In this document: piece after piece, positions 1 through 16,322 of the stretch
How the letters are laid out: the number at the start of each line of letters is the position of its first letter
Position numbering within the stretch: the stretch's first letter is position 1
IMG/VR virus record: IMGVR_UViG_2778261160_000003
Coordinates: 1-17,256 of that record
Source: a virus
Lineage: Duplodnaviria; Heunggongvirae; Uroviricota; Caudoviricetes
Reading direction: 5' to 3' (one strand)
DNA length: 17,256 nucleotides
Translations under genes and position numbers: made by a program
The notes under the pieces: model-generated
The model's input: the letters and a program-made list of their open reading frames with translations, nothing else
Databases searched by the model: none
Told to the model about the DNA's origin: nothing

Positions 1-1053
1 TTACGGGGTAATGCCAACCGCTGCCGCCACTTTGTCGCCACTTGGCAGCGTTGCCAGAGGATTGAAACGGAGCGCCGTTTCCAGATGATCCGGTGCCAGA
101 TGTGCGTAACGCATAGTCATTTTTATATCGTGGTGTCCGAGAATTTTTTGTAAGGCCAGAATGTTTCCACCCGACATCATGAAGTGCGCCGCAAACGTAT
201 GGCGCAGAACGTGTGTGAGTTGACCGCGAGGGAGCACGATAGACGTTTTTTCCATCACGGATAAAAATTGAAAATAGCAGTCTGTGAAGAAATTGAACCC
301 ATCAAGCGCCATGATCTCTTCGTAAAGCTCTTTACTGATAGGGATGCTTCTGTTTTTCTTCCCCTTCGTTCGTACAAAGGTAATTCGGTATTTGGTCACC
401 TGTGAACGAGTAAGATTTACGGCTTCTCGCCAGCGTGCGCCTGTGCTTAAGCATATCTTAACTACCAGTGCCAGAATTGGGTCCTGACGTTTGCAATCAG
501 CCAGTAATTCAACAATCTGCTCATGGGTAAGCCATGCCATCTCTTTTTCTGCGATGGTGAATTTTCGCATGTTCTCCAGTGGGTTCGGATACGACCATTC
601 GCCCAGGCGGGATAGTTCGCTAAAAACACTACTTAGATAGCTTTGCTCCAGGTTAATGGTGACCGGGCTTGCTCCTTTCTTCCATTTCTCGCTGAAGTAG
701 ATCTCACCTGTCAGGCGTTTATCTCGATAGTGGGCAAACATTTTAGAGGTTAGATCAGTTGCAAGGGGATTGCCCAGAGCGTCAACCATCAGCAGCAATT
801 TGTCATAGACATGCTGCCCAGCAGTCAGTGATTTACCATGTAGTTTGAACCATAGCTCAACCACGTCTTTCAGTGTTCGACGATCCACTGATTCACCTAG
901 CCAGGGCTTTGCTTCGGTTTCTTCCATCGTGTGACGCTCAAAAGCCAGTGCTTCGCCTTTGGTGGCGAATTGTTTACGCACACGACGCCCACTACGTCCG
1001 GCGGGGTAACATTCGCAAAGCCATTTTCCTGTGGTGAGTTTTCGTACAGCCAT
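1..1053 (-). CDS. int: Prophage tyrosine integrase (P2/186-like)
   Basis: 350-codon minus-strand ORF; ATG is revcomp of 1051-1053, preceded by GGAGGG. N-terminus MAVRKLTTG..GRRVRKQFATKGEALAFE and boxes CLSTGARWREA / HVLRHTFA / MRYAHL resemble P2 Int as I recall it. Stop codon is bases 1-3. The ORF track extends to 1131 but has no RBS there. Confidence 0.9.
   Translation of the reverse strand: MAVRKLTTGKWLCECYPAGRSGRRVRKQFATKGEALAFERHTMEETEAKPWLGESVDRRTLKDVVELWFKLHGKSLTAGQHVYDKLLLMVDALGNPLATDLTSKMFAHYRDKRLTGEIYFSEKWKKGASPVTINLEQSYLSSVFSELSRLGEWSYPNPLENMRKFTIAEKEMAWLTHEQIVELLADCKRQDPILALVVKICLSTGARWREAVNLTRSQVTKYRITFVRTKGKKNRSIPISKELYEEIMALDGFNFFTDCYFQFLSVMEKTSIVLPRGQLTHVLRHTFAAHFMMSGGNILALQKILGHHDIKMTMRYAHLAPDHLETALRFNPLATLPSGDKVAAAVGITP
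19..40. repeat. Candidate attL core, 22-bp direct repeat CGCTGCCGCCACTTTGTCGCCA
   Basis: Matches 14402-14423 at 21 of 22 positions in direct orientation (single C/T difference). Lies in the last codons of int. Confidence 0.55.
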
Positions 1054-1078
1054 AAAAAATGCCCTCCAATAGAGAGCA

Positions 1079-1106
1079 TTTTTACTGTATGTATAACCAG
1101 TGTCAA
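1079..1106 (-). promoter_or_regulatory. Putative int promoter with a LexA-box-like CTG-N10-CAG in the spacer
   Basis: Read on the minus strand: TTGACA (revcomp of 1101-1106), 16-17 nt spacer, TAAAAA(T). The spacer contains CTGGTTATACATACAG (plus strand CTGTATGTATAACCAG, 1085-1100). It is 30-50 bp upstream of the int ATG. Confidence 0.35.
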
Positions 1107-1241
1107 TGTATGAAATCCTGCGACCATACATCTCACTGAAGCCATAATGAAGTAGGCTATTCTTTTTGCTATGTGATCATGTAACTTTTGCGGTTAACCT
1201 GTGGCTCATTTTTATTTTAGGCGCAGATATAAAAGCAAAAG

Positions 1242-1433
1242 TTATCGTGAGTTTTTAGTACAGATTTTTTTGGATTTACTAATAGTTCCATCATTGCAAA
1301 CGAATTTGCCATCAGAGGTACAGTGAGAAACACCTCCCTTTTTCCCTGAGCAGGGATAATTTCTAGCATAGGTAGCTAGTGGGTTTAATAACAAAGAACA
1401 TGACAAAACCACAAAAAATACCTTACCAAGCAT
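1242..1433 (-). CDS. Small hypothetical protein with predicted signal peptide and four cysteines
   Basis: 63-codon ORF whose ATG is preceded by GGGAGGAAATT. Hydrophobic N-terminus [20 protein letters not shown], then a Lys/Cys-containing tail. AT-rich. Sits between cI and int on the same strand. Confidence 0.45.
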
Positions 1434-1448
1434 AATTTCCTCCCGGTA

Positions 1449-2018
1449 CTATTTAACATACTTGACTGTTAAACTTATAATTTTACCAATTATTTCAATG
1501 TCTTCTATCTTACATTCGAAGGCTCTGTTTCCACCCTCGACGAAGATTCTTCCACCGGGTAAACGAGTAATGTCACGGATCGTTATTTCGCCATCAATAC
1601 TTATTACCCATTTACCATCACGTATATCATCAAATTCCTTATCACAAATAAATTCAGAATTATTATCTGTGATTACAAAAAGATTCTTGAATGCCGACGG
1701 TAGAAATTCTCTATCGAAAATATAAAAACCGTCTTCACACAAGGCCCCATCAGATAATACATATTTAGCAACTTCCATAGTATTTGTATTACCTGAAGTT
1801 TGCTTTGAACCATGCCCGGTTGTGAGCCAATTAAGCGAGGTGCCTGTTTCAAGGGCGCACTGGATTACCCATTCTGCTGGGAATGAGTCACGCATGTAGC
1901 GTGTGGCGAGTGTACTTTTAGAGATTCCTAAATGATCGCACAACGCCTGTCGAGTCTTGAATCCATAAGCTTCTACCATGCGCTCTATGGCGCCTCGTCC
2001 GCCTTTCTCCAAATTCAT
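1449..2018 (-). CDS. cI: CI-type immunity repressor (phage 186 CI-like)
   Basis: 189 codons from the ATG at revcomp 2016-2018, with GGAG about 5 nt upstream; the ORF track extends to a GTG at 2024. N-terminal HTH-like segment EAYGFKTRQALCDHLGISKSTLATRY. Size and position (between int and the divergent early operon) match 186 CI from memory. Confidence 0.75.
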   Translation of the reverse strand: MNLEKGGRGAIERMVEAYGFKTRQALCDHLGISKSTLATRYMRDSFPAEWVIQCALETGTSLNWLTTGHGSKQTSGNTNTMEVAKYVLSDGALCEDGFYIFDREFLPSAFKNLFVITDNNSEFICDKEFDDIRDGKWVISIDGEITIRDITRLPGGRIFVEGGNRAFECKIEDIEIIGKIISLTVKYVK

Positions 2019-3721: not shown

Positions 3722-3948
3722 TGGCTGATGCAATGGATCTCGTACAGCAGCGCGTTGAAGAAGAACGCCAGCGCCACATCCGTGCTGCCCGTGCCAAAAC
3801 ACCGGGCGTGTCTCGCGTGCTTTGCATAGAGTGTGAAGCGCCAATTCCGCCAGCACGCCGCCGCGCCATTCCGGGAGTGCAGCTTTGCATTACCTGTCAG
3901 GAAATCGCAGAGCTGAAAGGTAAACATTACAACGGAGGTGCTGTATGA
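3721..3948 (+). CDS. TraR/DksA-family C4 zinc-finger protein
   Basis: 75 codons with CIECEAPIPPARRRAIPGVQLCITCQE (CxxC-N17-CxxC), the pattern of phage/plasmid TraR-like proteins. Start overlaps the upstream stop. Confidence 0.7.
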   Translation: MADAMDLVQQRVEEERQRHIRAARAKTPGVSRVLCIECEAPIPPARRRAIPGVQLCITCQEIAELKGKHYNGGAV

Positions 3949-4802
3949 GCACCATCCTGAAATGGGCGGGTAATAAAACCGCCATTATGCCAGAACTGAA
4001 AAAATACCTTCCTGCTGGCCCGCGACTGGTTGAACCTTTCGCGGGTTCTTGTGCTGTGATGATAGAGACGGATTACCCCAGCTATCTTGTTGCGGATATT
4101 AATCCTGATTTAATCAACCTCTATAAAAAGGTTGCTGCTGATTGCGAGGCGTTTATATCTCGTGCCAGAGCTTTATTTGAGGAAGCAAACAGGGAGGTGG
4201 CTTATTACAACATAAGGCAGGAGTTTAATTACTCCACTGAAATTACTGATTTCATGAAAGCGGTATATTTCCTGTATCTCAATCGTCATGGTTACCGTGG
4301 GTTATGTCGCTATAACAAGAGCGGGCATTTCAACATTCCCTATGGGAATTATAAAAATCCGTATTTCCCTGAAAAAGAAATTCGCAAATTTGCAGAAAAA
4401 GCCCAGCGAGCAACGTTTATCTGCGCCAGCTTTGATGAAACGCTGGCGATGTTGAAGGCGGGGGATGTGGTGTATTGCGATCCGCCTTATTACGGTACGT
4501 TTTCCGGCTATCACACTGATGGCTTCACTGAGGATGACCAGTATCACCTGGCATCCGTTCTTGAACATCGATCATCTGAAGGTCATCCGGTCATTGTTTC
4601 TAACAGTGACACATCCCTGATTCGTTCGCTGTATCGCAATTTCACTCACCACTACATCAAGGCAAAACGCAGCATCGGCGTGTCGGCTGGCAAGAGTAAA
4701 TCTGCAACAGAAATCATTGCTGTTTCCGGGGCGCGCTGCTGGGTGGGATTTGATCCTTCGCGTGGCGTAGATAGTTCTGCTGTGTACGAGGTGCGTGTAT
4801 GA
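3945..4802 (+). CDS. dam: DNA adenine (N6) methyltransferase, Dam family
   Basis: 285 codons. N-terminal KWAGNK, AdoMet-binding-like EPFAGSCAV, catalytic DPPY (CDPPYYGT). Start overlaps the upstream stop (ATGA) and its stop overlaps the A start. Confidence 0.85.
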
Positions 4803-7365: not shown

Positions 7366-7554
7366 ATGCAGGACTATTTTTTGGAGTCTTTGAAGCTCCA
7401 GCGCATTGATTTTTTTCTTAAGCTTGTAGCGGCTAGTGAGTGTAGTGATGAAGAGAAGGGGCTGGCCCTGCAGTGGGTTTCTGAACTGACAGATGAACTC
7501 ATGGCAAAAATCAGAACCCACGAATACAACCGCTCAATGGATGTCATCAGCTGA
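7366..7554 (+). CDS. Small hypothetical protein, first gene of the putative SOS-controlled operon (Tum-position antirepressor candidate)
   Basis: 62 codons, strong RBS AGGAGG 4 nt before the ATG, downstream of the LexA box. In phage 186 the equivalent LexA-controlled position holds the tum antirepressor; sequence similarity not verified. Confidence 0.5.
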   Translation: MQDYFLESLKLQRIDFFLKLVAASECSDEEKGLALQWVSELTDELMAKIRTHEYNRSMDVIS

Positions 7555-7564
7555 GGTGACTTTT

Positions 7565-7798
7565 ATGCGCATTGAAATAATGATCGATAAAGAGCAAAAG
7601 ATTAGCCAGTCTACACTGGACGCCCTTGAATCCGAGCTTTACCGCAATCTGCGCCCCCTGTATCCCAAAACGGTAATTCGTATCCGCAAAGGTAGCTCTA
7701 ACGGTGTGGAACTGACCGGACTGCAACTGGACGAAGAAAGAAAACAAGTGATGAAAATTATGCAGAAGGTGTGGGAAGACGACAGCTGGCTGCATTAA
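7565..7798 (+). CDS. dinI: DinI-family protein
   Basis: 77 codons from ATG 7565, with GAGGTG 5 nt upstream. Begins MRIEIMIDKEQ and ends QKVWEDDSWLH, mirroring E. coli DinI (MRIEVTIAK ... ETWESADDW) in pattern and size. Confidence 0.7.
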   Translation: MRIEIMIDKEQKISQSTLDALESELYRNLRPLYPKTVIRIRKGSSNGVELTGLQLDEERKQVMKIMQKVWEDDSWLH

Positions 7799-8212: not shown

Positions 8213-9295
8213 ATGATAAACGTTACAAACGAAATGCTCATTGATGTTGTCAGTGATGCTCTTACCGGGAAGAGGGAAAGTCTCCTCATGCGGTTGCGGA
8301 TTATGGCAAAAAAACTAAAAAAAGAATCTCCTGAATTAGCGGGTAAATTAGAAGATTTACTTATTAATACGGGTGGCGCAATTGCAGTCGAAAGGGCTAA
8401 TCCAGTTGTTCCTAAAATAACACCTGTTGATGCGGATACAAGACAAAAGCTGCTAGTTGAAACATATCCTGTGGTCATTGATGTTGAACCTGTTTGGCCA
8501 ACAAAAACTGATGTTCAACTGAATCGATTTGTGGCTGAGTGGGAAATGAAAGAACGCCTTTATAAAGAAGGGTTGCATCCCTCCAAATCTCTTCTTATGG
8601 GAGGACCACCCGGTGTGGGGAAGACTTTGGCTGCAAAGTGGCTCGCTTTTAAACTCGATATGCCATTGTTAACATTAGATCTCGCAAGTGTAATGAGTAG
8701 CTACTTGGGGAAAACGGGTAATAATATTAAGGCAGTCCTCAATTATGCTTCGTCATTCCCTTGTGTACTGCTTCTTGACGAATTTGATGCGATTGCTAAA
8801 AAAAGGGATGATGCAACAGATGTTGGAGAACTAAAAAGATTAGTTACAGTATTATTGCAAGCAATTGATGAATGGCCAAATACGTCTGTTCTTATAGCAG
8901 CAACTAACCATGCGGAGCTGCTTGATCCTGCTGCATGGAGAAGATTCGATCGAGTTATTGATTTTGAATATCCAACACAAGACCTAATGAGAAGATATCT
9001 CTGTTCTAAAAATATTGGAGATAGCTTATCGTACTATATTGCTACAAAACTCGAAAAAGTTTCATATGCAGTTCTTGAGAGAGCTATAAATCAAGCTAAA
9101 AGAAATGCCATTATAGAAGATATTCCTTTAAGTTCAGCTTTAATTGATGAGTTGTTAGATGGCGTGTCACTTGATGATGTTATAAAAAACATGTCAAACA
9201 ACAATGTATCACAAAGAAAAATCGCTTTAGATTTGGGGATTTCAAGGTCACAAGTACGTAAGGTTTTGACGGTTGAGGATGAAGACAATGAATGA
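8213..9295 (+). CDS. AAA+ ATPase with C-terminal HTH-like tail (cargo gene 1)
   Basis: 360 codons. Walker A GPPGVGKT (Lys codon 8621-8623), Walker B VLLLDEFD (8777-8782), sensor-1 IAATNH, second-region-of-homology-like AAWRRFDRV. C-terminal SQRKIALDLGISRSQVRKVL resembles a helix-turn-helix. AT-rich. Confidence 0.85.
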   Translation: MINVTNEMLIDVVSDALTGKRESLLMRLRIMAKKLKKESPELAGKLEDLLINTGGAIAVERANPVVPKITPVDADTRQKLLVETYPVVIDVEPVWPTKTDVQLNRFVAEWEMKERLYKEGLHPSKSLLMGGPPGVGKTLAAKWLAFKLDMPLLTLDLASVMSSYLGKTGNNIKAVLNYASSFPCVLLLDEFDAIAKKRDDATDVGELKRLVTVLLQAIDEWPNTSVLIAATNHAELLDPAAWRRFDRVIDFEYPTQDLMRRYLCSKNIGDSLSYYIATKLEKVSYAVLERAINQAKRNAIIEDIPLSSALIDELLDGVSLDDVIKNMSNNNVSQRKIALDLGISRSQVRKVLTVEDEDNE

Positions 9296-11480
9296 TAAAA
9301 ATATGCTTCTTGGCTATGGTGAAACACTAACTAACCCTGTTAAACTTAACAGAGGTGGAGGTGAAAAGAATAAACCTTACTCTTATTCAGAAAATAAACC
9401 AGTGATATCTGCTCAACTGGAAGAGTTGATTGAGGAAATTAATACCCTTCCATTGTTAGCAATGCCTGAAGGTAAGGCTGTAGCAAAATTTGTTTTGCAT
9501 CCGGCATTCTTAGCAAAAAGTTATTTTCCAGTAAGTCTTTTTGAGCGATTTTCCCTAGAAAGCATAGGCAGTAAGGCTGTAAAAGTAAAACCTAGAAAAG
9601 ATATTAAAAAAAGAGGGCGAAAAGAGGAATACACTACAGCGTGTATTTATGTTTCTGGCAAAAAAGAAAGTTTTCAATCATTCTTAGACTCTGTAAATCA
9701 AGATACCCTAACGAAAGGGCAGCAAAATGATTTTGTCACCTTAGAAAATATTTCAATACTGGAAGTTTCAGATAAAGTAAAAACGATTAATAGCAATGAA
9801 GTTATGAGTATTGAGGTCGCCTTACATACTCCTGATACAAGTTCCTCTATTGTCGATAGTTTTGAAGTTTTTGCTTCGCAAAATGGTGCTGTTATAGATA
9901 AGGCAAGAAGTATAAAAGTTAAGGGGCTAACCTTTATGCCTATTAAGGCTAGTAAAGATGTAGCTTTAAAAGTTGCAGAGTTTTCATTTCTCAGGACTTT
10001 GAGAGAACTTCCTGAATTAAGGCTAAGTGAGCCTGTTATATCACGTTCTGTGATTCAAACATCTAACCTTAGTTTACCATCTGAAGGAGCGGTAAACCCA
10101 CACATAAAGGTTGCCATATTCGATGGTGGATTGGGGATCGATGATTTCAATCCTTGGGTAACAGAGTACACTTTCAACGGTAATGCTAGTACTAATGCAA
10201 AACTTCTTTCTCATGGACAGGATGTCACCTCTACTGTGTTATTTGGTGTTCTTGGCTCTGAAACGGAAAAATTAAGTGTTCCTTATTGTAATATTGACCA
10301 TTATCGTGTACTGGATTCCAATGTTAATAACTCAGATGTCGATCTTTTTGACGTTCTGATCCGTATTAAAAGTGTATTAGAACAAAAAAAATATGATTAT
10401 ATCAATCTGAGCTTAGGACCTAGATTACCTGTTGATGACGATGACGTGCATGTGTGGACCTCAACTCTTGAGGAGATACTTGCATCAGGAGAAACACTTT
10501 GTACTGTCGCGGTTGGAAATGATGGTCAGCTGCCTGCCAAGTTAAATCGAATTCAACCACCTGCTGATTTAGTTAATGGTCTGTCAGTAGGTGCAGCAAC
10601 CTCTTTATCTGATAGTTGGGAAAGATGTTCTTACAGTTGTATTGGTCCTGGACGAAGCCCTGGCTTTGTGAAGCCTGATGGAGTTGCATTTGGAGGACAT
10701 TCTGATGAGCCATTCCAGGTATACAGCCCTATGGTTAATGGTCTTGCCCGCACTGCGGGGACTAGCTTTTCTGCTCCATTAGTCCTGAGGCAAGCAATCG
10801 CGTTAAGTGCTTCTCTAAATTACAACATTACACCACTTACGGCTAAAGCTCTGCTTATACATCATGCGGAGAGCAATAATATCAATCGTGCTGAAGTTGG
10901 TTGGGGACGATTTCCTCATGATCTTAGTGAAGTAATATTTTGTGATGATGATGAAGTTAAAGTTATATATCAAGGTACTTTAAAACCATCACAACACATG
11001 CGAGCACCTATTCCGTTTCCAGATGTACCTATGCGTGGATGTGTAAATTTAAGAGCGACATTCTGTTTTTCCAGTCCTGTTGATGCGGAACATCCTTTGA
11101 ATTATACAAGAAGCGGTCTAGAAGTAACCATGAGAAAAGGTGTTTCAGATAGTTCCGGGTTAACGTTTCCTCTTTTTAATCTAAAAAATGTTTATGCAGA
11201 TGAAAATGAGCAACGTGTTGATGCACATAAATGGGAGACTACGTTAAGAAGTGAACACAAATTTAAACCGAATGAGCTGACAAACCCATGCTTTGATATT
11301 ATCTACTATGGTAGAGACTGTGGTATGCCTATTGATGTTGACGAGTTAGAAGAACTACCATATGTTCTTGTTGTGACTTTATCTGCTGAAGAAATGCCGG
11401 ATTTATATAACCTAATTAGGCAGAAATATCAAACCTTACAGCCTATCCAAGTTCAACAGCAAATTATGTTACGTACTTAA
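9288..11480 (+). CDS. Subtilisin-like serine protease, S8 family, no signal peptide (cargo gene 2)
   Basis: 730 codons from ATG 9288; alternative ATG at 9279, ORF track starts at TTG 9273. Start overlaps the ATPase stop as ATGAATGA. Catalytic motifs in canonical order: Asp in VAIFDGG (10122-10124), His in SHGQDV (10212-10214), Asn in AVGNDG (10518-10520), Ser in GTSFSAP (10764-10766). N-terminus is hydrophilic. Confidence 0.85.
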   Translation: MNDKNMLLGYGETLTNPVKLNRGGGEKNKPYSYSENKPVISAQLEELIEEINTLPLLAMPEGKAVAKFVLHPAFLAKSYFPVSLFERFSLESIGSKAVKVKPRKDIKKRGRKEEYTTACIYVSGKKESFQSFLDSVNQDTLTKGQQNDFVTLENISILEVSDKVKTINSNEVMSIEVALHTPDTSSSIVDSFEVFASQNGAVIDKARSIKVKGLTFMPIKASKDVALKVAEFSFLRTLRELPELRLSEPVISRSVIQTSNLSLPSEGAVNPHIKVAIFDGGLGIDDFNPWVTEYTFNGNASTNAKLLSHGQDVTSTVLFGVLGSETEKLSVPYCNIDHYRVLDSNVNNSDVDLFDVLIRIKSVLEQKKYDYINLSLGPRLPVDDDDVHVWTSTLEEILASGETLCTVAVGNDGQLPAKLNRIQPPADLVNGLSVGAATSLSDSWERCSYSCIGPGRSPGFVKPDGVAFGGHSDEPFQVYSPMVNGLARTAGTSFSAPLVLRQAIALSASLNYNITPLTAKALLIHHAESNNINRAEVGWGRFPHDLSEVIFCDDDEVKVIYQGTLKPSQHMRAPIPFPDVPMRGCVNLRATFCFSSPVDAEHPLNYTRSGLEVTMRKGVSDSSGLTFPLFNLKNVYADENEQRVDAHKWETTLRSEHKFKPNELTNPCFDIIYYGRDCGMPIDVDELEELPYVLVVTLSAEEMPDLYNLIRQKYQTLQPIQVQQQIMLRT

Positions 11481-12612: not shown

Positions 12613-12915
12613 ATGAGCGATAAGCAGACTGAAAAGACCATTCAACTGGATACCCCTATCAAGCGCGGTAAAACAGAAATTACCGAAATTGTGCTGCGTA
12701 AACCGCAGTCCGGTGCGCTGCGCGGTACACGCCTGCAGGCCATTATGGATATGGATGTGAACGCGATGATGACCGTGATCCCCCGCATTTCCAGTCCGGC
12801 ACTGACTGCACAGGAAATCGCAGAGATGGACCCGGCAGATCTCACAGCCATGTCGGTTGAGGTTGTCACTTTTTTGTTGAAGAAGTCGGTGCTTGCCGGT
12901 TTACCGACAGCCTGA
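12613..12915 (+). CDS. E: Tail assembly chaperone E (P2 gpE-like)
   Basis: 100 codons, MSDKQTEKTIQLDTPIKRGKTEITEI ... AEMDPADLTAM, immediately upstream of the tape-measure gene. Confidence 0.8.
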   Translation: MSDKQTEKTIQLDTPIKRGKTEITEIVLRKPQSGALRGTRLQAIMDMDVNAMMTVIPRISSPALTAQEIAEMDPADLTAMSVEVVTFLLKKSVLAGLPTA

Positions 12916-14636: not shown

Positions 14637-16322
14637 TTATCCTAATCCTGGCCATACCATGACGATGATTGTCCCTGCCAGCGTCAGCAGGACGTTGGCG
14701 ATTGCGTAGGTGCCCGCATAGCCCAGCGCAGGGATGTTACTGCGAGCTGTATCACTGATGATCTCCATTGCCGGCGCGCAGGTGCGTGCGCCCATCATTG
14801 CGCCGAACAACAGTGCGCGGTTCATTCGCAATACATAAGCACCGAACAAGAAACAGATAACCACGGGCACAAGACTGACAATTAATCCGGCAATCAACAT
14901 CTGACCGCCAATCGCGCCCAGGCCGTTATTAATACCGCTACCGGCGCTCAGACCAACGCCTGCCATAAACACCATCAAGCCGAACTCTTTCACCATGCTT
15001 AATGCACCTTGCGGAATGTAACCGAAGGTCGGGTGGTTAGCACGCATAAAGCCCAGCATAATTCCGGCGAATAACAACCCGGCAGCGTTCCCCATGCCGA
15101 AACTGAATGTGCTGAACTGGAAGGTGATCATCCCGATCATCAGCCCAATAACAAAGAAGGCGCAAAATGCCAGCAGGTCAGTGACCTGGCTGTGAATCGA
15201 GATAAAGCCGATGCGATCGGCGATGGTTTTTACGCGACGGGCATCACCGCTGACTTGTAAAACGTCACCTTTGTTAAGCACGACGTTGTCATCTATCGGC
15301 ATCTCAATCTGGCTACGAATGACGCGGTTAAGGAAGCAACCGTGATCGGTCAACTTCAGTTGTGCGAGACGTTTACCTACAGCGTTATGGTTTTTAACGA
15401 CCACTTCTTCAGTGACGATACGCATGTCGAGAAGGTCACGATCGAAAACTTCTTTACCGTTACGGAAGCTGGGATCGAGTCGGGCATGGGCGTCGGGATA
15501 GCCTACCAACGCTATTTCATCGCCCATTTGTAGCACGGCATCACCGTCTGGATTTGCCAGAATCCCGTTACGTCGAATACGTTCAATGTAGCAGCCGGTT
15601 TGTCGATAAATACCCAGTTCACGCAGATTTTTGCCGTCGGTCCAGGCCACCAGCTCCGGGCCGACGCGATAGGCGCGGATCACCGGTAAATAAACCTTAC
15701 GGTTGGCATCAGTGTCCAGGCCACGTTCGCGGGCGATTTGCTGGGCGCTGGTCTGTAAGTCCTGATGCTGCAATTTCGGCAAGTAACGCGCACCAACAAT
15801 CAAACTCACCAGACCGATTAAATAGGTTAAGGCATACCCGAGGCTCAGATTATCCAGTGCCAGTGAGAGCTGCCTGCTTTCCATGCCGGAATGACGCAGT
15901 GTATCGCCAGCACCGACCAGAACCGGTGTCGACGTCATAGAGCCTGCTAACATACCGGCCGTCAGGCCAATATCCCAGCCAAACAGCTTACCTAACCCTA
16001 AGGCGATCACCAGCGCACTGCCAACCATCACCAGTGCTAACATTAGGTAATTTTTCCCATCGCGAAAAAAAATGGAAAAAAAGTTCGGTCCGGCTTCGAC
16101 CCCGACGCAGAAAATAAACAGCATAAAGCCAAGATTAAGCGCATCGGTGTTAATGCTGAAATGTTGTTGGCCTAATAACAGCGATACGACTAAAACGCCA
16201 ATGGAATTACCCAGTTGGATCGAACCAAGTCGTAACTTTCCGAGACATAGCCCAAGCGCGAGGACCACAAATAATAACAGAATGTAATTCCCATTTAACA
16301 ATTCGGCGACGTTTATATTCAC
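14637..16322 (-). CDS. ybjL: Putative transport protein YbjL (AAE-family transporter)
   Basis: 561 codons; sequence [33 protein letters not shown]... recognised as E. coli YbjL. Multiple hydrophobic segments and central soluble domains. Confidence 0.9.

Follow-up and report, generated by a model that had tools for sequence, protein, structure and literature searches.

A ydcA-family gene between cI and int of a P2/186-like prophage encodes a small, predicted periplasmic protein with a possible role in exclusion

The window, that is, the whole stretch of 17,256 nucleotides that was analysed, carries on its minus strand a short open reading frame (ORF) between a 186-type cI repressor gene and a P2/186-type integrase gene (int), all three in the same orientation (Table 1). 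Its position, strand and length of 63 amino acids coincide with those given in an earlier note made from the letters of the sequence. The ATG lies 15 nt from the cI stop codon (TAG, 1449–1451), and the end of the ORF is separated by 188 nt from int, which forms the downstream end of the lysogeny operon. The Shine-Dalgarno sequence placed in the cI-ORF spacer gives a duplex of −10.3 kcal/mol with the 3′ end of 16S rRNA, which ranks second among the 17 genes of the window and is equalled at just 0.6% of all the window ATGs on both strands. The earlier note was right in counting it among the best of the window, and at the sequence level the translation signal is strong. The AT-richness also noted for the ORF was confirmed (35.9% GC versus 46.7% for the window). 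However, the low-GC block spans also the C-terminal half of cI (1449–1774, 33.7% GC), so the ORF is not an isolated island of biased composition.

Table 1. Features of the cI-ydcA-int region, in coordinates of the window.
Feature	Coordinates	Strand	Description and support
ydcA-family gene	1242..1433	−	63 codons plus TAA stop at 1242–1244; ORF list, NF007463, phrog_6000, RefSeq
Signal peptide (predicted), residues 1–23	1365..1433	−	MLGK / 12-residue h-region / NPLATYA; putative cleavage site of signal peptidase I behind Ala23
Mature peptide (predicted), residues 24–63	1245..1364	−	40 aa, 4 Cys, 4.3 kDa
Shine-Dalgarno GGGAGG	1439..1444	−	5 nt 5′ of the ATG, within the 15-nt cI-ydcA spacer (1434–1448)
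cI repressor (186-type)	1449..2018 (alternative end 2024)	−	Phage_CI_repr 2.8e-33, Phage_CI_C 2.7e-27, PGAP
int, P2/186-type tyrosine integrase	1..1053	−	Int_N 3.4e-32, Phage_integrase 1.1e-21, PGAP WP_000290937.1
Long imperfect hairpin	1182..1244	−	starts at the ydcA stop codon; z-score −4.8 (RNA fold of 1245–1040)
A5-stem-U6 hairpin	1055..1083	−	directly before the int ATG; −14.5 kcal/mol, z-score −4.7
Sigma-70-like site TTGACA-17-AAAAAT	1078..1106	−	upstream of int; 10/12 consensus matches

The ORF is a genuine protein-coding gene of the YdcA family, and it is already catalogued. Its product scores 114.6 bits with the curated NCBIfam YdcA model NF007463 (cut-off 93), with residues 5–63 aligned to profile positions 1–58 of 58, and matches phrog_6000 (PHROG 6000) with 3e-34. 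Precomputed annotation assigns the Pfam family PF27300 to the identical protein (P0001) and to nearly all the homologs, and RefSeq contains the identical locus, annotated by PGAP as WP_001513672.1, 'YdcA family protein'. So, with the identical protein in RefSeq and with NCBIfam, Pfam and PHROG models at hand, this is no new element. A Pfam scan of the ORF with a release older than PF27300 returned only a sub-threshold chance match, GULLO2-like, and a scan of the protein against PADLOC-DB 2.0 returned no defence-system model at E ≤ 0.001. At E ≤ 1e-3, 455 cluster representatives are related to it.

Some names and likenesses were discarded. The UniRef name 'Conjugal transfer protein' of the identical protein is a submitter or automatic name, and nothing in the context of the window supports it. 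The genes called ydcA in the gonococcal genetic island of Neisseria, in Bacillus and in plasmids appear to be unrelated and to have only the name in common. Relatives of 101–128 aa bear a C-terminal extension that we took to be like DUF3761 or the PBCV basic-adaptor motif (GPRGG.Y); this likeness was dropped, as Pfam scans of the ORF and of one relative (P0057) gave no such match.

Between the ORF and the E. coli B allele there are 11 synonymous and two conservative non-synonymous codon changes, and across 49 species the core shows a pN of 0.19 and a pS of 0.81, the latter being saturated. As judged from these comparisons, purifying selection on the ORF is clear. In a 29-sequence alignment the invariant columns were P27, C28, S29, K32, G33, G34, C38, F44, C46, D48, G49, S52, S54, K55 and C58. 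The window protein has every one of them, including the four cysteines and the core PCSG.KGG..HC / F.C.DG..S.SK..C, a motif spread over alpha-, beta- and gamma-proteobacteria. The interpretation as an ORF that arose by chance in AT-rich spacer DNA, or as a cis-acting RNA region controlling int, could appeal to the shortness and AT-richness of the ORF and to the highly structured spacer 3′ of it, but it is practically untenable, as it is already refuted by the curated family models passed, the ratio of synonymous to non-synonymous changes, the amino acids conserved although synonymous sites are saturated, and the presence of the motif in three proteobacterial classes.

The hydrophobic start of the protein had been read in the earlier note as a leader followed by a basic region with several cysteines, and both parts of this description hold. 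By heuristic features, the leader is built in three parts like a Sec signal peptide, with Lys4, a 12-residue h-region of mean Kyte-Doolittle hydropathy 2.86 and the sequence T-Y-A before Arg24. In a heuristic scan, 80–81 of the 82 homologs were alike, each with a variable leader that starts with basic residues and has a hydrophobic core followed by a small-x-small site. Although the hydrophobic N-terminus varies, the alanine at −1 (A23) is invariant in the alignments of homologs. E. coli K-12 YdcA has likewise been described as bearing a signal sequence and as predicted periplasmic (bioRxiv 10.1101/2024.02.12.579971). Export by Sec and cleavage after Ala23 would be expected from these features. 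The mature part contains nine Lys/Arg versus two Asp/Glu, with a net charge of +7 and a pI of 9.7, and in the homologs this basic core with four cysteines is near-invariant. The four cysteines would presumably form two disulfides, and the expected mass of the oxidised peptide (RNYPC...KNSR) is about 4289 Da. An AF2 model gave pLDDT values of 82–89 over residues 31–60.

Alternatively, Cys12 in the sequence VVLSC could be the lipid-modified cysteine of a lipobox, which would make a membrane-anchored 52-aa lipoprotein comparable to Llp and Cor. The V-L-S-C at residues 9–12 is loosely lipobox-like, and one Yersinia homolog (P0047) is named 'Lipoprotein' in UniRef, but we hold this to be very unlikely, and it was rejected because Cys12 is not conserved: it is confined to the E. 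coli clade, in contrast to the invariant Ala23, and the leaders of K-12 YdcA and of the homolog of Haemophilus phage HP2 lack cysteine. In addition, Leu at −2 is non-canonical, and lipoprotein signal peptides are usually longer than the 11 residues that precede Cys12; the window protein lacks a pattern [LVI][ASTVI][GAS]C preceded by a leader of at least about 15 residues.

Concerning transcription, a consensus scan of the minus strand from the start of cI to ydcA revealed no promoter of ydcA's own, and no terminator was found between the two genes. On these grounds, and in view of the 15-nt spacer, co-transcription of ydcA with cI is proposed. The placement of the gene within the cI operon, together with its strong Shine-Dalgarno sequence, suggests that the product is probably made in every lysogen. 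Directly 3′ of the ORF, no canonical terminator was found. The long imperfect hairpin that starts there has a 10-bp outer stem (AACUUUUGC...GCAAAAGUU) and no U tract behind it. In the second hairpin the int Shine-Dalgarno (GGAGGG) is paired, and the structure resembles an intrinsic terminator that would end the cI-ydcA transcript. The segment that contains it (1001–1111) is 95.5% identical in Klebsiella phages without ydcA, which indicates that the hairpin travels with int. The sigma-70-like site upstream of int is just a lead, the number of such sites in the region being that expected from shuffles, and a putative transcript from it would start inside the hairpin.

The order cI-ydcA-int, all on one strand, recurs in at least five P2-like lineages, namely the E. 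coli type, an Enterobacter-type lineage, a third lineage, Yersinia prophages and the Haemophilus phages HP2/S2, so that conservation at the same position in related prophages, which the earlier note had named as a point to check, is well documented. In the Enterobacter-type lineage, cI is 43% identical and 3 nt separate the ydcA stop from the start of int; in the third lineage, cI is 36% identical; in HP2, the homolog is an unannotated ORF whose ATG overlaps the cI stop. With the cI lineages as little as 36–43% identical, 221 of 237 viral loci have cI upstream of ydcA on the same strand. The gene occurs in 648 of 5426 complete E. coli genomes (~12%, about one in eight), including the B/BL21 lineage, where a decayed remnant in E. 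coli B still has ydcA beside cI; the copy in BL21 is 92% identical. In IMG/VR, at least 533 viral contigs encode a relative; a first scan retrieved near-identical E. coli prophages alone, and divergent queries revealed the other lineages.

The neighbourhood downstream of ydcA is variable. In NC101, ydcA is kept next to cI with extra cargo placed after it: homology to the window stops near 1265, a short way before the ORF ends, and a KAP NTPase (PADLOC PDC-S20) is encoded between ydcA and int. Phage 813R9 has a DUF4041-T5orf172 protein in the cI-int interval, and in this phage and in Klebsiella phage 4LV2017 the slot is occupied by other cargo or by none, without ydcA. In agreement with the earlier note, P2 and 186 have no gene there: in P2 the 115-nt gap from C to int has no annotated gene, and in 186 there is no gap at all, as the end of cI overlaps the beginning of int. 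In Moraxella and Acinetobacter phages, the homolog lies among structural or unassigned genes, outside the lysogeny module, so expression in the lysogen is not a family-wide rule. The majority of the family members are chromosomal and lie outside prophages, which argues for a general envelope role over a phage-specific one.

The proposal of a moron expressed from the lysogen survives in part. The gene is an accessory one, located in the cI operon and missing from the close relatives 186 and P2. What did not stand is its autonomy, as the consensus scan gave no promoter of its own, and the nearest terminator-like hairpin (1055–1083) belongs to the int-proximal module. Its base composition departs from that of the window and is close to that of the adjoining C-terminal domain of cI. 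The lack of its own promoter and the low G+C shared with this domain make it cargo of the operon and not a moron cassette in its own right.

The relationships of the YdcA domain offer a clue to function. The best match, both by profile (E 3.8e-5) and by Foldseek (probability 0.85), is Dis2 (7MUC/7MUD chain AN), the only relative with a solved structure and a known location. Comparison by hhalign with a Dis2 ortholog gave a probability of 88.8% and an E of 2.5e-6, and the same ortholog itself carries PF27300. It is probable that the ydcA core and the lobes of Dis2 are homologous. [quoted passage not shown] Weak PDB profile matches to Pin-II proteinase inhibitors and LDL-receptor class A repeats (E 0.06–8) were attributed to cysteine spacing and composition and judged non-homologous.

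The domain occurs also in other settings. Behind a signal peptide, it is fused to three unrelated families of secreted nucleases (Endonuclease_NS, SNase and PLDc_2). A longer ydcA paralog is embedded in type VI secretion (T6SS) clusters, in the order tssB, tssC, tssE, an unassigned 156-aa ORF, the ydcA-like gene, T5orf172, tssA and vasL. Family members also have nuclease-type neighbours, T5orf172 at nine loci, SNase at one and RNase_T at one.

Considering all these data, the interpretation that we favour, with somewhat better than even confidence, is that of a periplasmic binding module expressed by the lysogen and possibly acting as an exclusion factor. According to it, cI and ydcA would be transcribed together from the lysogenic promoter, and the near-consensus Shine-Dalgarno would ensure efficient translation of ydcA whenever repressor is made, i.e. 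in every lysogen. Sec would export the 63-aa precursor, and cleavage behind Ala23 by signal peptidase I would release into the periplasm a 40-residue mini-protein with a charge of +7 and two disulfides. The YdcA domain would act outside the cytoplasm as a small binding module, and Dis2 would be made up of two such domains. [quoted passage not shown] The phage copy may bring about lysogenic conversion, with hindrance to the entry of foreign DNA or phages (superinfection exclusion) as the most probable mode of action, although exclusion as the selected benefit is speculative.

A different benefit to the host could also be at work, with the phage gene providing an envelope or stress factor for tolerance to acid or organic acids, as chromosomal ydcA may do, unrelated to phage exclusion. 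According to one study, deletion of ydcA from E. coli W causes severe sensitivity to 300 mM 3-hydroxypropionate, and the gene is reported to be induced at pH 5 under YdcI control (PMC7642389). The mostly chromosomal location of the family, and a mature core about 70% identical between the phage and the K-12-type proteins, point in the same direction. We consider this alternative unlikely, but far from negligible: the phenotype is a single one, from that one study, with no complementation in its accessible part and no mechanism, a second copy would add little to an E. coli that already has chromosomal ydcA unless dosage or regulation matters, and the adjoining slot holds defence-type cargo in related prophages.

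A periplasmic DNA-binding peptide, which would block or divert DNA uptake (anti-transformation, anti-conjugation) or recruit or assist a nuclease, is distinctly unlikely. It would account for the fusions to three independent families of non-specific nucleases behind a signal peptide, the recurrent nuclease-type neighbours, the high positive charge and pI of the mature protein, and the phage-borne copies in the naturally competent genera Haemophilus, Moraxella and Acinetobacter. E. coli, however, shows no natural competence under ordinary conditions, no DNA-binding fold was recognised in the YdcA protein, and localisation or anchoring explains the nuclease fusions equally well. Moreover, Dis2, the only relative placed structurally, touches the outer-membrane cap and not DNA (PMC8486379). 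Finally, a secreted cationic, bacteriocin-like antimicrobial peptide used by the lysogen against competitors is highly improbable: the product is small, cationic and, by prediction, disulfide-stabilised, but there are no adjacent immunity, maturation or export genes, a Sec leader takes a Gram-negative product no further than the periplasm, elsewhere the domain makes up a structural subunit (Dis2) or the N-terminal module of enzymes, and its extreme conservation across classes is unlike that of bacteriocins.

Among the small exported proteins of proteobacteria, YdcA ranks with the most conserved, and in P2/186-like prophages its gene is hard-wired to the immunity repressor although the repressors have diverged so far. 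A bolder proposal, which we consider rather unlikely as a whole, is that YdcA would be a portable docking lobe, proximal to the outer membrane, used in Dis2, in T6SS and for parking nucleases, with the phage copies, from Escherichia to Haemophilus, serving as a decoy or plug against DNA entry. If this were true, ydcA would represent a class of factors for superinfection or entry exclusion, new and very small, that ~12% of E. coli genomes carry and that would interfere with the incoming DNA traffic, i.e. phage ejection, conjugation or transformation. Lysogens with and without the 192-bp gene offer a clean genetic handle on what YdcA and Dis2 bind. The unannotated copy in the HP2 reference genome constitutes a small annotation gap.

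Compared to Dis2 (Lpg0823), the phage protein shares the motif CSK.GG...C....G..VCN.G..S, and both are disulfide-rich and exported, the phage protein by prediction. Dis2, with its two lobes and five disulfides, is however a stoichiometric component of a secretion machine, while the phage protein consists of one lobe, with four cysteines in the mature part, and its gene has no secretion-system genes nearby; no Dot/Icm-type genes were found in the window, only P2-like prophage genes, an IetAS system and host genes. The 57-aa YdcA of E. coli K-12 (PRK10040 / NF007462–NF007464; PF27300) is alike in its predicted Sec-type leader, the same four cysteines and the PCSG.KGG..HC motif, but its gene is chromosomal, beside cybB and rydC (bioRxiv 10.1101/2024.02.12.579971), whereas that of the window is in a prophage lysogeny operon behind cI. 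The best sub-model is also different, NF007463 for the window protein and NF007462 for K-12 YdcA.

Known envelope morons and exclusion factors include Bor and Lom of lambda, the lipoproteins Llp of T5 and Cor of phi80/N15, and old, tin and fun(Z) of P2. The gene ydcA resembles them as a small accessory gene, absent from close relatives, in a prophage-expressed position and with a product predicted to be envelope-directed. It is related to none of them in sequence or fold, its product is neither a lipoprotein nor an outer-membrane beta-barrel, and it appears to use the cI transcript instead of a promoter of its own. So, as to the superinfection-exclusion class, the sequence supports the part that concerns a prophage-encoded and envelope-directed product. 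Another term of comparison is the 'integrase-to-primase' interval of P2-like phages, described as a minor defence hotspot (PMC13586616). The gene lies in the same cI-int interval, where related prophages have a KAP NTPase, a DUF4041-T5orf172 protein or a 350-aa hypothetical protein. It differs from the other cargo of such a hotspot in that it matches no PADLOC model and in that ydcA stays by cI while the other cargo varies downstream.

The window is a 186-like prophage of E. coli (Peduoviridae) that has integrated next to rcdA and ybjJ. An earlier note had proposed an AT-rich ORF of 63 codons with a strong RBS between cI and int on the same strand, and the ORF is indeed found there (1242-1433, minus strand); beyond cI, the opposite strand carries apl-like, cII (Phage_CP76), fil, dam and gpA genes. 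The ORF starts with an ATG 15 nt from the cI stop (TAG, 1449-1451). Its Shine-Dalgarno sequence, with a predicted pairing to the 16S rRNA 3′ end of -10.3 kcal/mol, ranks second among the 17 window genes, and only 0.6% of ATGs, both strands counted, equal its strength. Concerning base composition, the ORF is AT-rich (35.9% G+C versus 46.7% in the window), but the C-terminal half of cI is likewise so (33.7%) and low G+C is thus not confined to the ORF; the AT-rich block (about 1112-1774) comprises the cI C-terminal domain, the ORF and its 3′ flank. The note's statement that P2 and 186 have no gene here holds: the cI stop of 186 already overlaps the start of int, and in P2 no gene is annotated in the 115-nt gap between C and int.

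Coordinates of features in the window and, where a locus is named, in other genomes
Feature	Location	Strand	Evidence or remark
int, P2/186-type integrase	1-1053	-	Int_N 3.4e-32, Phage_integrase 1.1e-21; downstream of ORF
A5-stem-U6 hairpin	1055-1083	-	-14.5 kcal/mol, z = -4.7; directly before int ATG
Promoter-like TTGACA-17-AAAAAT	1078-1106	-	consensus scan; overlaps A5-stem-U6 hairpin
Hairpin beginning at ydcA stop codon	1182-1244	-	RNA fold
ydcA-family ORF	1242-1433	-	63 codons
Shine-Dalgarno GGGAGG	1439-1444	-	5 nt before ORF ATG
cI, 186-type repressor	1449-2018/2024	-	Phage_CI_repr 2.8e-33, Phage_CI_C 2.7e-27 (Pfam); upstream of ORF
Orphan Dam-type adenine methylase	3945-4802	+	PADLOC oMTase 2.2e-110
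DinI-like protein	7493-7798	+	Pfam 1.3e-22
IetA, AAA ATPase	8213-9295	+	PADLOC 6.7e-84
IetS, S8 subtilase	9273-11480	+	PADLOC 1.8e-48
Portal fragment, 204 aa	11519-12133	-	Phage_portal positions 109-291 of 321
Tail-chaperone E gene	12613-12915	+	directly after portal fragment
Host-type Asp-Al_Ex/TrkA_C permease (ybjL-like)	14637-16322	-	about 2 kb beyond E gene
KAP-family NTPase, strain NC101, after ydcA	L169 1142-2473	-	PADLOC candidate PDC-S20, 2.4e-171
558-aa DUF4041-T5orf172/MUG113 protein, phage vB_EcoM-813R9, replaces ydcA	L005 3591-5267	+	
T6SS-embedded YdcA paralog	L038 7995-8399	+	between tssE and T5orf172 protein

Judged by its sequence, the ORF is a real gene of the known YdcA family. 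Its product scored 114.6 bits with NCBIfam NF007463 (PRK10040.1-2; curated cut-off 93) and also matched two sister models, NF007462 and NF007464, as well as PHROG 6000 (3e-34). The local Pfam copy gave no model for it, while the newer PF27300 is carried by the identical database protein and by nearly all homologs; RefSeq names a 100% identical locus 'YdcA family protein' (WP_001513672.1). The exact protein heads a 355-member cluster that occurs on at least 1000 contigs. Of 5426 complete E. coli genomes, 648 have the cassette 1112-1448 (590 with coverage of at least 80%), and relatives are encoded on at least 533 IMG/VR viral contigs. Compared to the 92%-identical E. coli B (T7Express) allele there are 13 nucleotide differences, in 11 synonymous and two non-synonymous codons (A20T, in the leader, and R24K). 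Over a 32-codon core from 49 species, pN was 0.19 and pS 0.81, with synonymous sites saturated. These codon comparisons plainly point to purifying selection on ydcA.

The hydrophobic leader followed by a Cys-containing region was borne out as well. Across 29 aligned homologs, the sequence of the first ~23 residues is free to vary, yet every homolog retains a basic start, a hydrophobic stretch and a small-x-small site with an invariant Ala23; this three-part, Sec-type pattern is present in 80-81 of 82 genomic homologs. From Asn25 on, the sequence is almost frozen (P27, C28, S29, K32, G33, G34, C38, F44, C46, D48, G49, S52, S54, K55 and C58 are invariant). Such a combination is the signature expected when a Sec signal peptide is cleaved from a constrained mature domain. 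The mature product is predicted to have 40 residues, four Cys, 9 K/R against 2 D/E and a pI of 9.7. AlphaFold2, run on a 31-sequence alignment, predicted a small, beta-hairpin-based fold (mean pLDDT 75.8; 82-89 for residues 31-60). A lipoprotein reading of the leader (Cys12 in VLSC) was rejected because Cys12 is not conserved. [quoted passage not shown]

Conservation at the same position in related prophages, suggested earlier as a check, gave a clear positive result: cI-ydcA-int on one strand recurs across lineages, with cI directly upstream on the same strand in 221 of the 237 viral loci fetched. In the E. coli type the cI variants show 86-100% identity, and two distinct N-terminal (immunity) types occur among them, with the C-terminal domain and ydcA common to both. 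An Enterobacter-type lineage keeps the order with a 43%-identical cI and 3 nt from the ydcA stop to the int start, and a third lineage (cI 36% identical) has one extra small gene in between. Yersinia prophages have cI upstream and int downstream on one strand; in Buttiauxella one ORF separates cI from ydcA and the downstream gene is not int. Haemophilus phages HP2 and S2 encode a 60-aa homolog, without annotation in the reference record, which begins at the final base of the cI stop. Strain NC101 has the order cI, ydcA, KAP-family NTPase, int, so ydcA stays with cI and further cargo enters after it. Same-integrase prophages carry other cargo in the slot, as in phage vB_EcoM-813R9 and Klebsiella phage 4LV2017 (a 350-aa hypothetical protein); the interval just upstream of int holds defence-type cargo in NC101 and 813R9. 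Outside P2-like phages, homologs lie between head and tail genes (Moraxella phage Mcat17) or, unannotated, in mid-genome (Acinetobacter phage Ab11510-phi). The E. coli T7Express/B lineage, in common laboratory use, has a decayed copy of this prophage (L168 985-5230), with cII and gpA as pseudogenes and int, ydcA (WP_001321204.1) and cI intact, so existing BL21 transcriptome or proteome data could show whether the gene is expressed.

A consensus scan of the minus strand found no sigma-70-like site from the cI start to the ORF and no terminator between cI and the ORF, so the ORF most likely depends on the cI transcripts, which in the 186 annotation are lysogenic (pL-type) and establishment (pE-type). 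A sigma-70-like TTAACA-17-TATAAT (11/12) at 1453-1481 (+), in the cI 3′ end and antisense into cI, may be chance in AT-rich DNA; the count of such sites in the region equals the shuffle expectation. Between ydcA and int, which are 188 nt apart, the RNA is unusually structured (z = -4.8). The int Shine-Dalgarno is paired within the 1055-1083 hairpin, inside which transcripts from the TTGACA-17-AAAAAT site would begin. The hairpin segment belongs to the int module: Klebsiella phages that lack ydcA match window 1001-1111 at 95.5% identity. A reasonable reading is that cI-ydcA transcripts may end at this hairpin, or that int may go untranslated from them; hairpin and promoter-like site could form a terminator or translational switch uncoupling int from the cI-ydcA transcript.

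As for the rest of the window, the prophage looks defective from its gene content, with the portal gene present only as a fragment and the E gene directly after it. The host-type permease implies an element of at most ~14.6 kb, a full P2-like phage having ~30-33 kb. An IetA/IetS anti-phage system occupies the classical gpA-to-portal hotspot; another strain, whose lysogeny region is otherwise identical, has different genes at this site, for a TIGR04255 protein, a regulator and a hypothetical protein. The Dam-type methylase and the DinI-like protein are ordinary accessory genes in 186-like phages.

The family is a wide one: it comprises 455 50%-identity clusters (E<=1e-3), and species-representative genomes from the alpha-, beta- and gamma-proteobacteria gave 148 matches. 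The K-12-type chromosomal gene adjoins cybB. In several Enterobacterales, a 132-136-aa paralog lies inside type VI secretion clusters (tssB, tssC, tssE, unassigned 156-aa ORF, ydcA-like, T5orf172/MUG113 protein, tssA, vasL), as in locus L038 and the similar L032, L036, L040, L043, L047-L049, L056, L062, L063, L073 and L084. It has a conserved C-terminal extension (…QPTCAPLYMA.KPG.THLPICSGNQY) and may be an uncharacterised T6SS accessory component. The domain is also found in tandem, with two or three copies, and, between a signal peptide and a nuclease, in fusions with Endonuclease_NS (three proteins), SNase (one) and PLD-type (one) domains (P0154, P0137, the L027 ORF from 6024 onward, P0093 and P0141); one mini-domain has thus been recruited to three unrelated secreted-nuclease families. 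What these settings share is a small, basic extracytoplasmic module, locked by disulfides, that is attached to or works beside envelope machines and nucleases and behaves as a binding or docking domain, not an enzyme.

Phage ydcA would be co-transcribed with cI and efficiently translated; the precursor would be exported by Sec, cut after Ala23 and oxidised to form two disulfides, and YdcA would then reside in the periplasm near the outer membrane and bind a target that is anionic or conserved. The most likely benefit, as a speculation, is that the lysogen is shielded from incoming DNA (superinfection or entry exclusion). This is favoured because ydcA is fixed to the immunity gene, because defence-type neighbours share the slot, and because the family is associated with nucleases and secretion machines. 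Among the PADLOC models there is none for phage YdcA. The chief alternative is a stress role that benefits the host, as suggested for chromosomal ydcA: one study (PMC7642389) reports 3-hydroxypropionate sensitivity upon ydcA deletion, and induction at pH 5. Periplasmic DNA binding by phage YdcA is a narrower variant.

Overall, the earlier interpretation is supported. The element is already catalogued and therefore not new as an object. The literature searched yielded neither the link to Dis2, a Legionella Dot/Icm T4SS subunit, nor the nuclease fusions, the T6SS paralog, the recurrent cI-ydcA-int order from Escherichia to Haemophilus or the HP2 annotation gap, all of which make phage ydcA a good starting point for the study of a family that is very widespread yet uncharacterised. 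Concerning Dis2, the family profile gave one significant hit among solved structures, chain AN of 7MUC/7MUD (E 3.8e-5, two matches); this chain was still on top without the signal peptide, with an E of only 0.012, and ranked first in Foldseek with the AlphaFold2 model (probability 0.85, E 0.31). [quoted passage not shown] Homology of the YdcA domain to Dis2 is probable, although not proven.
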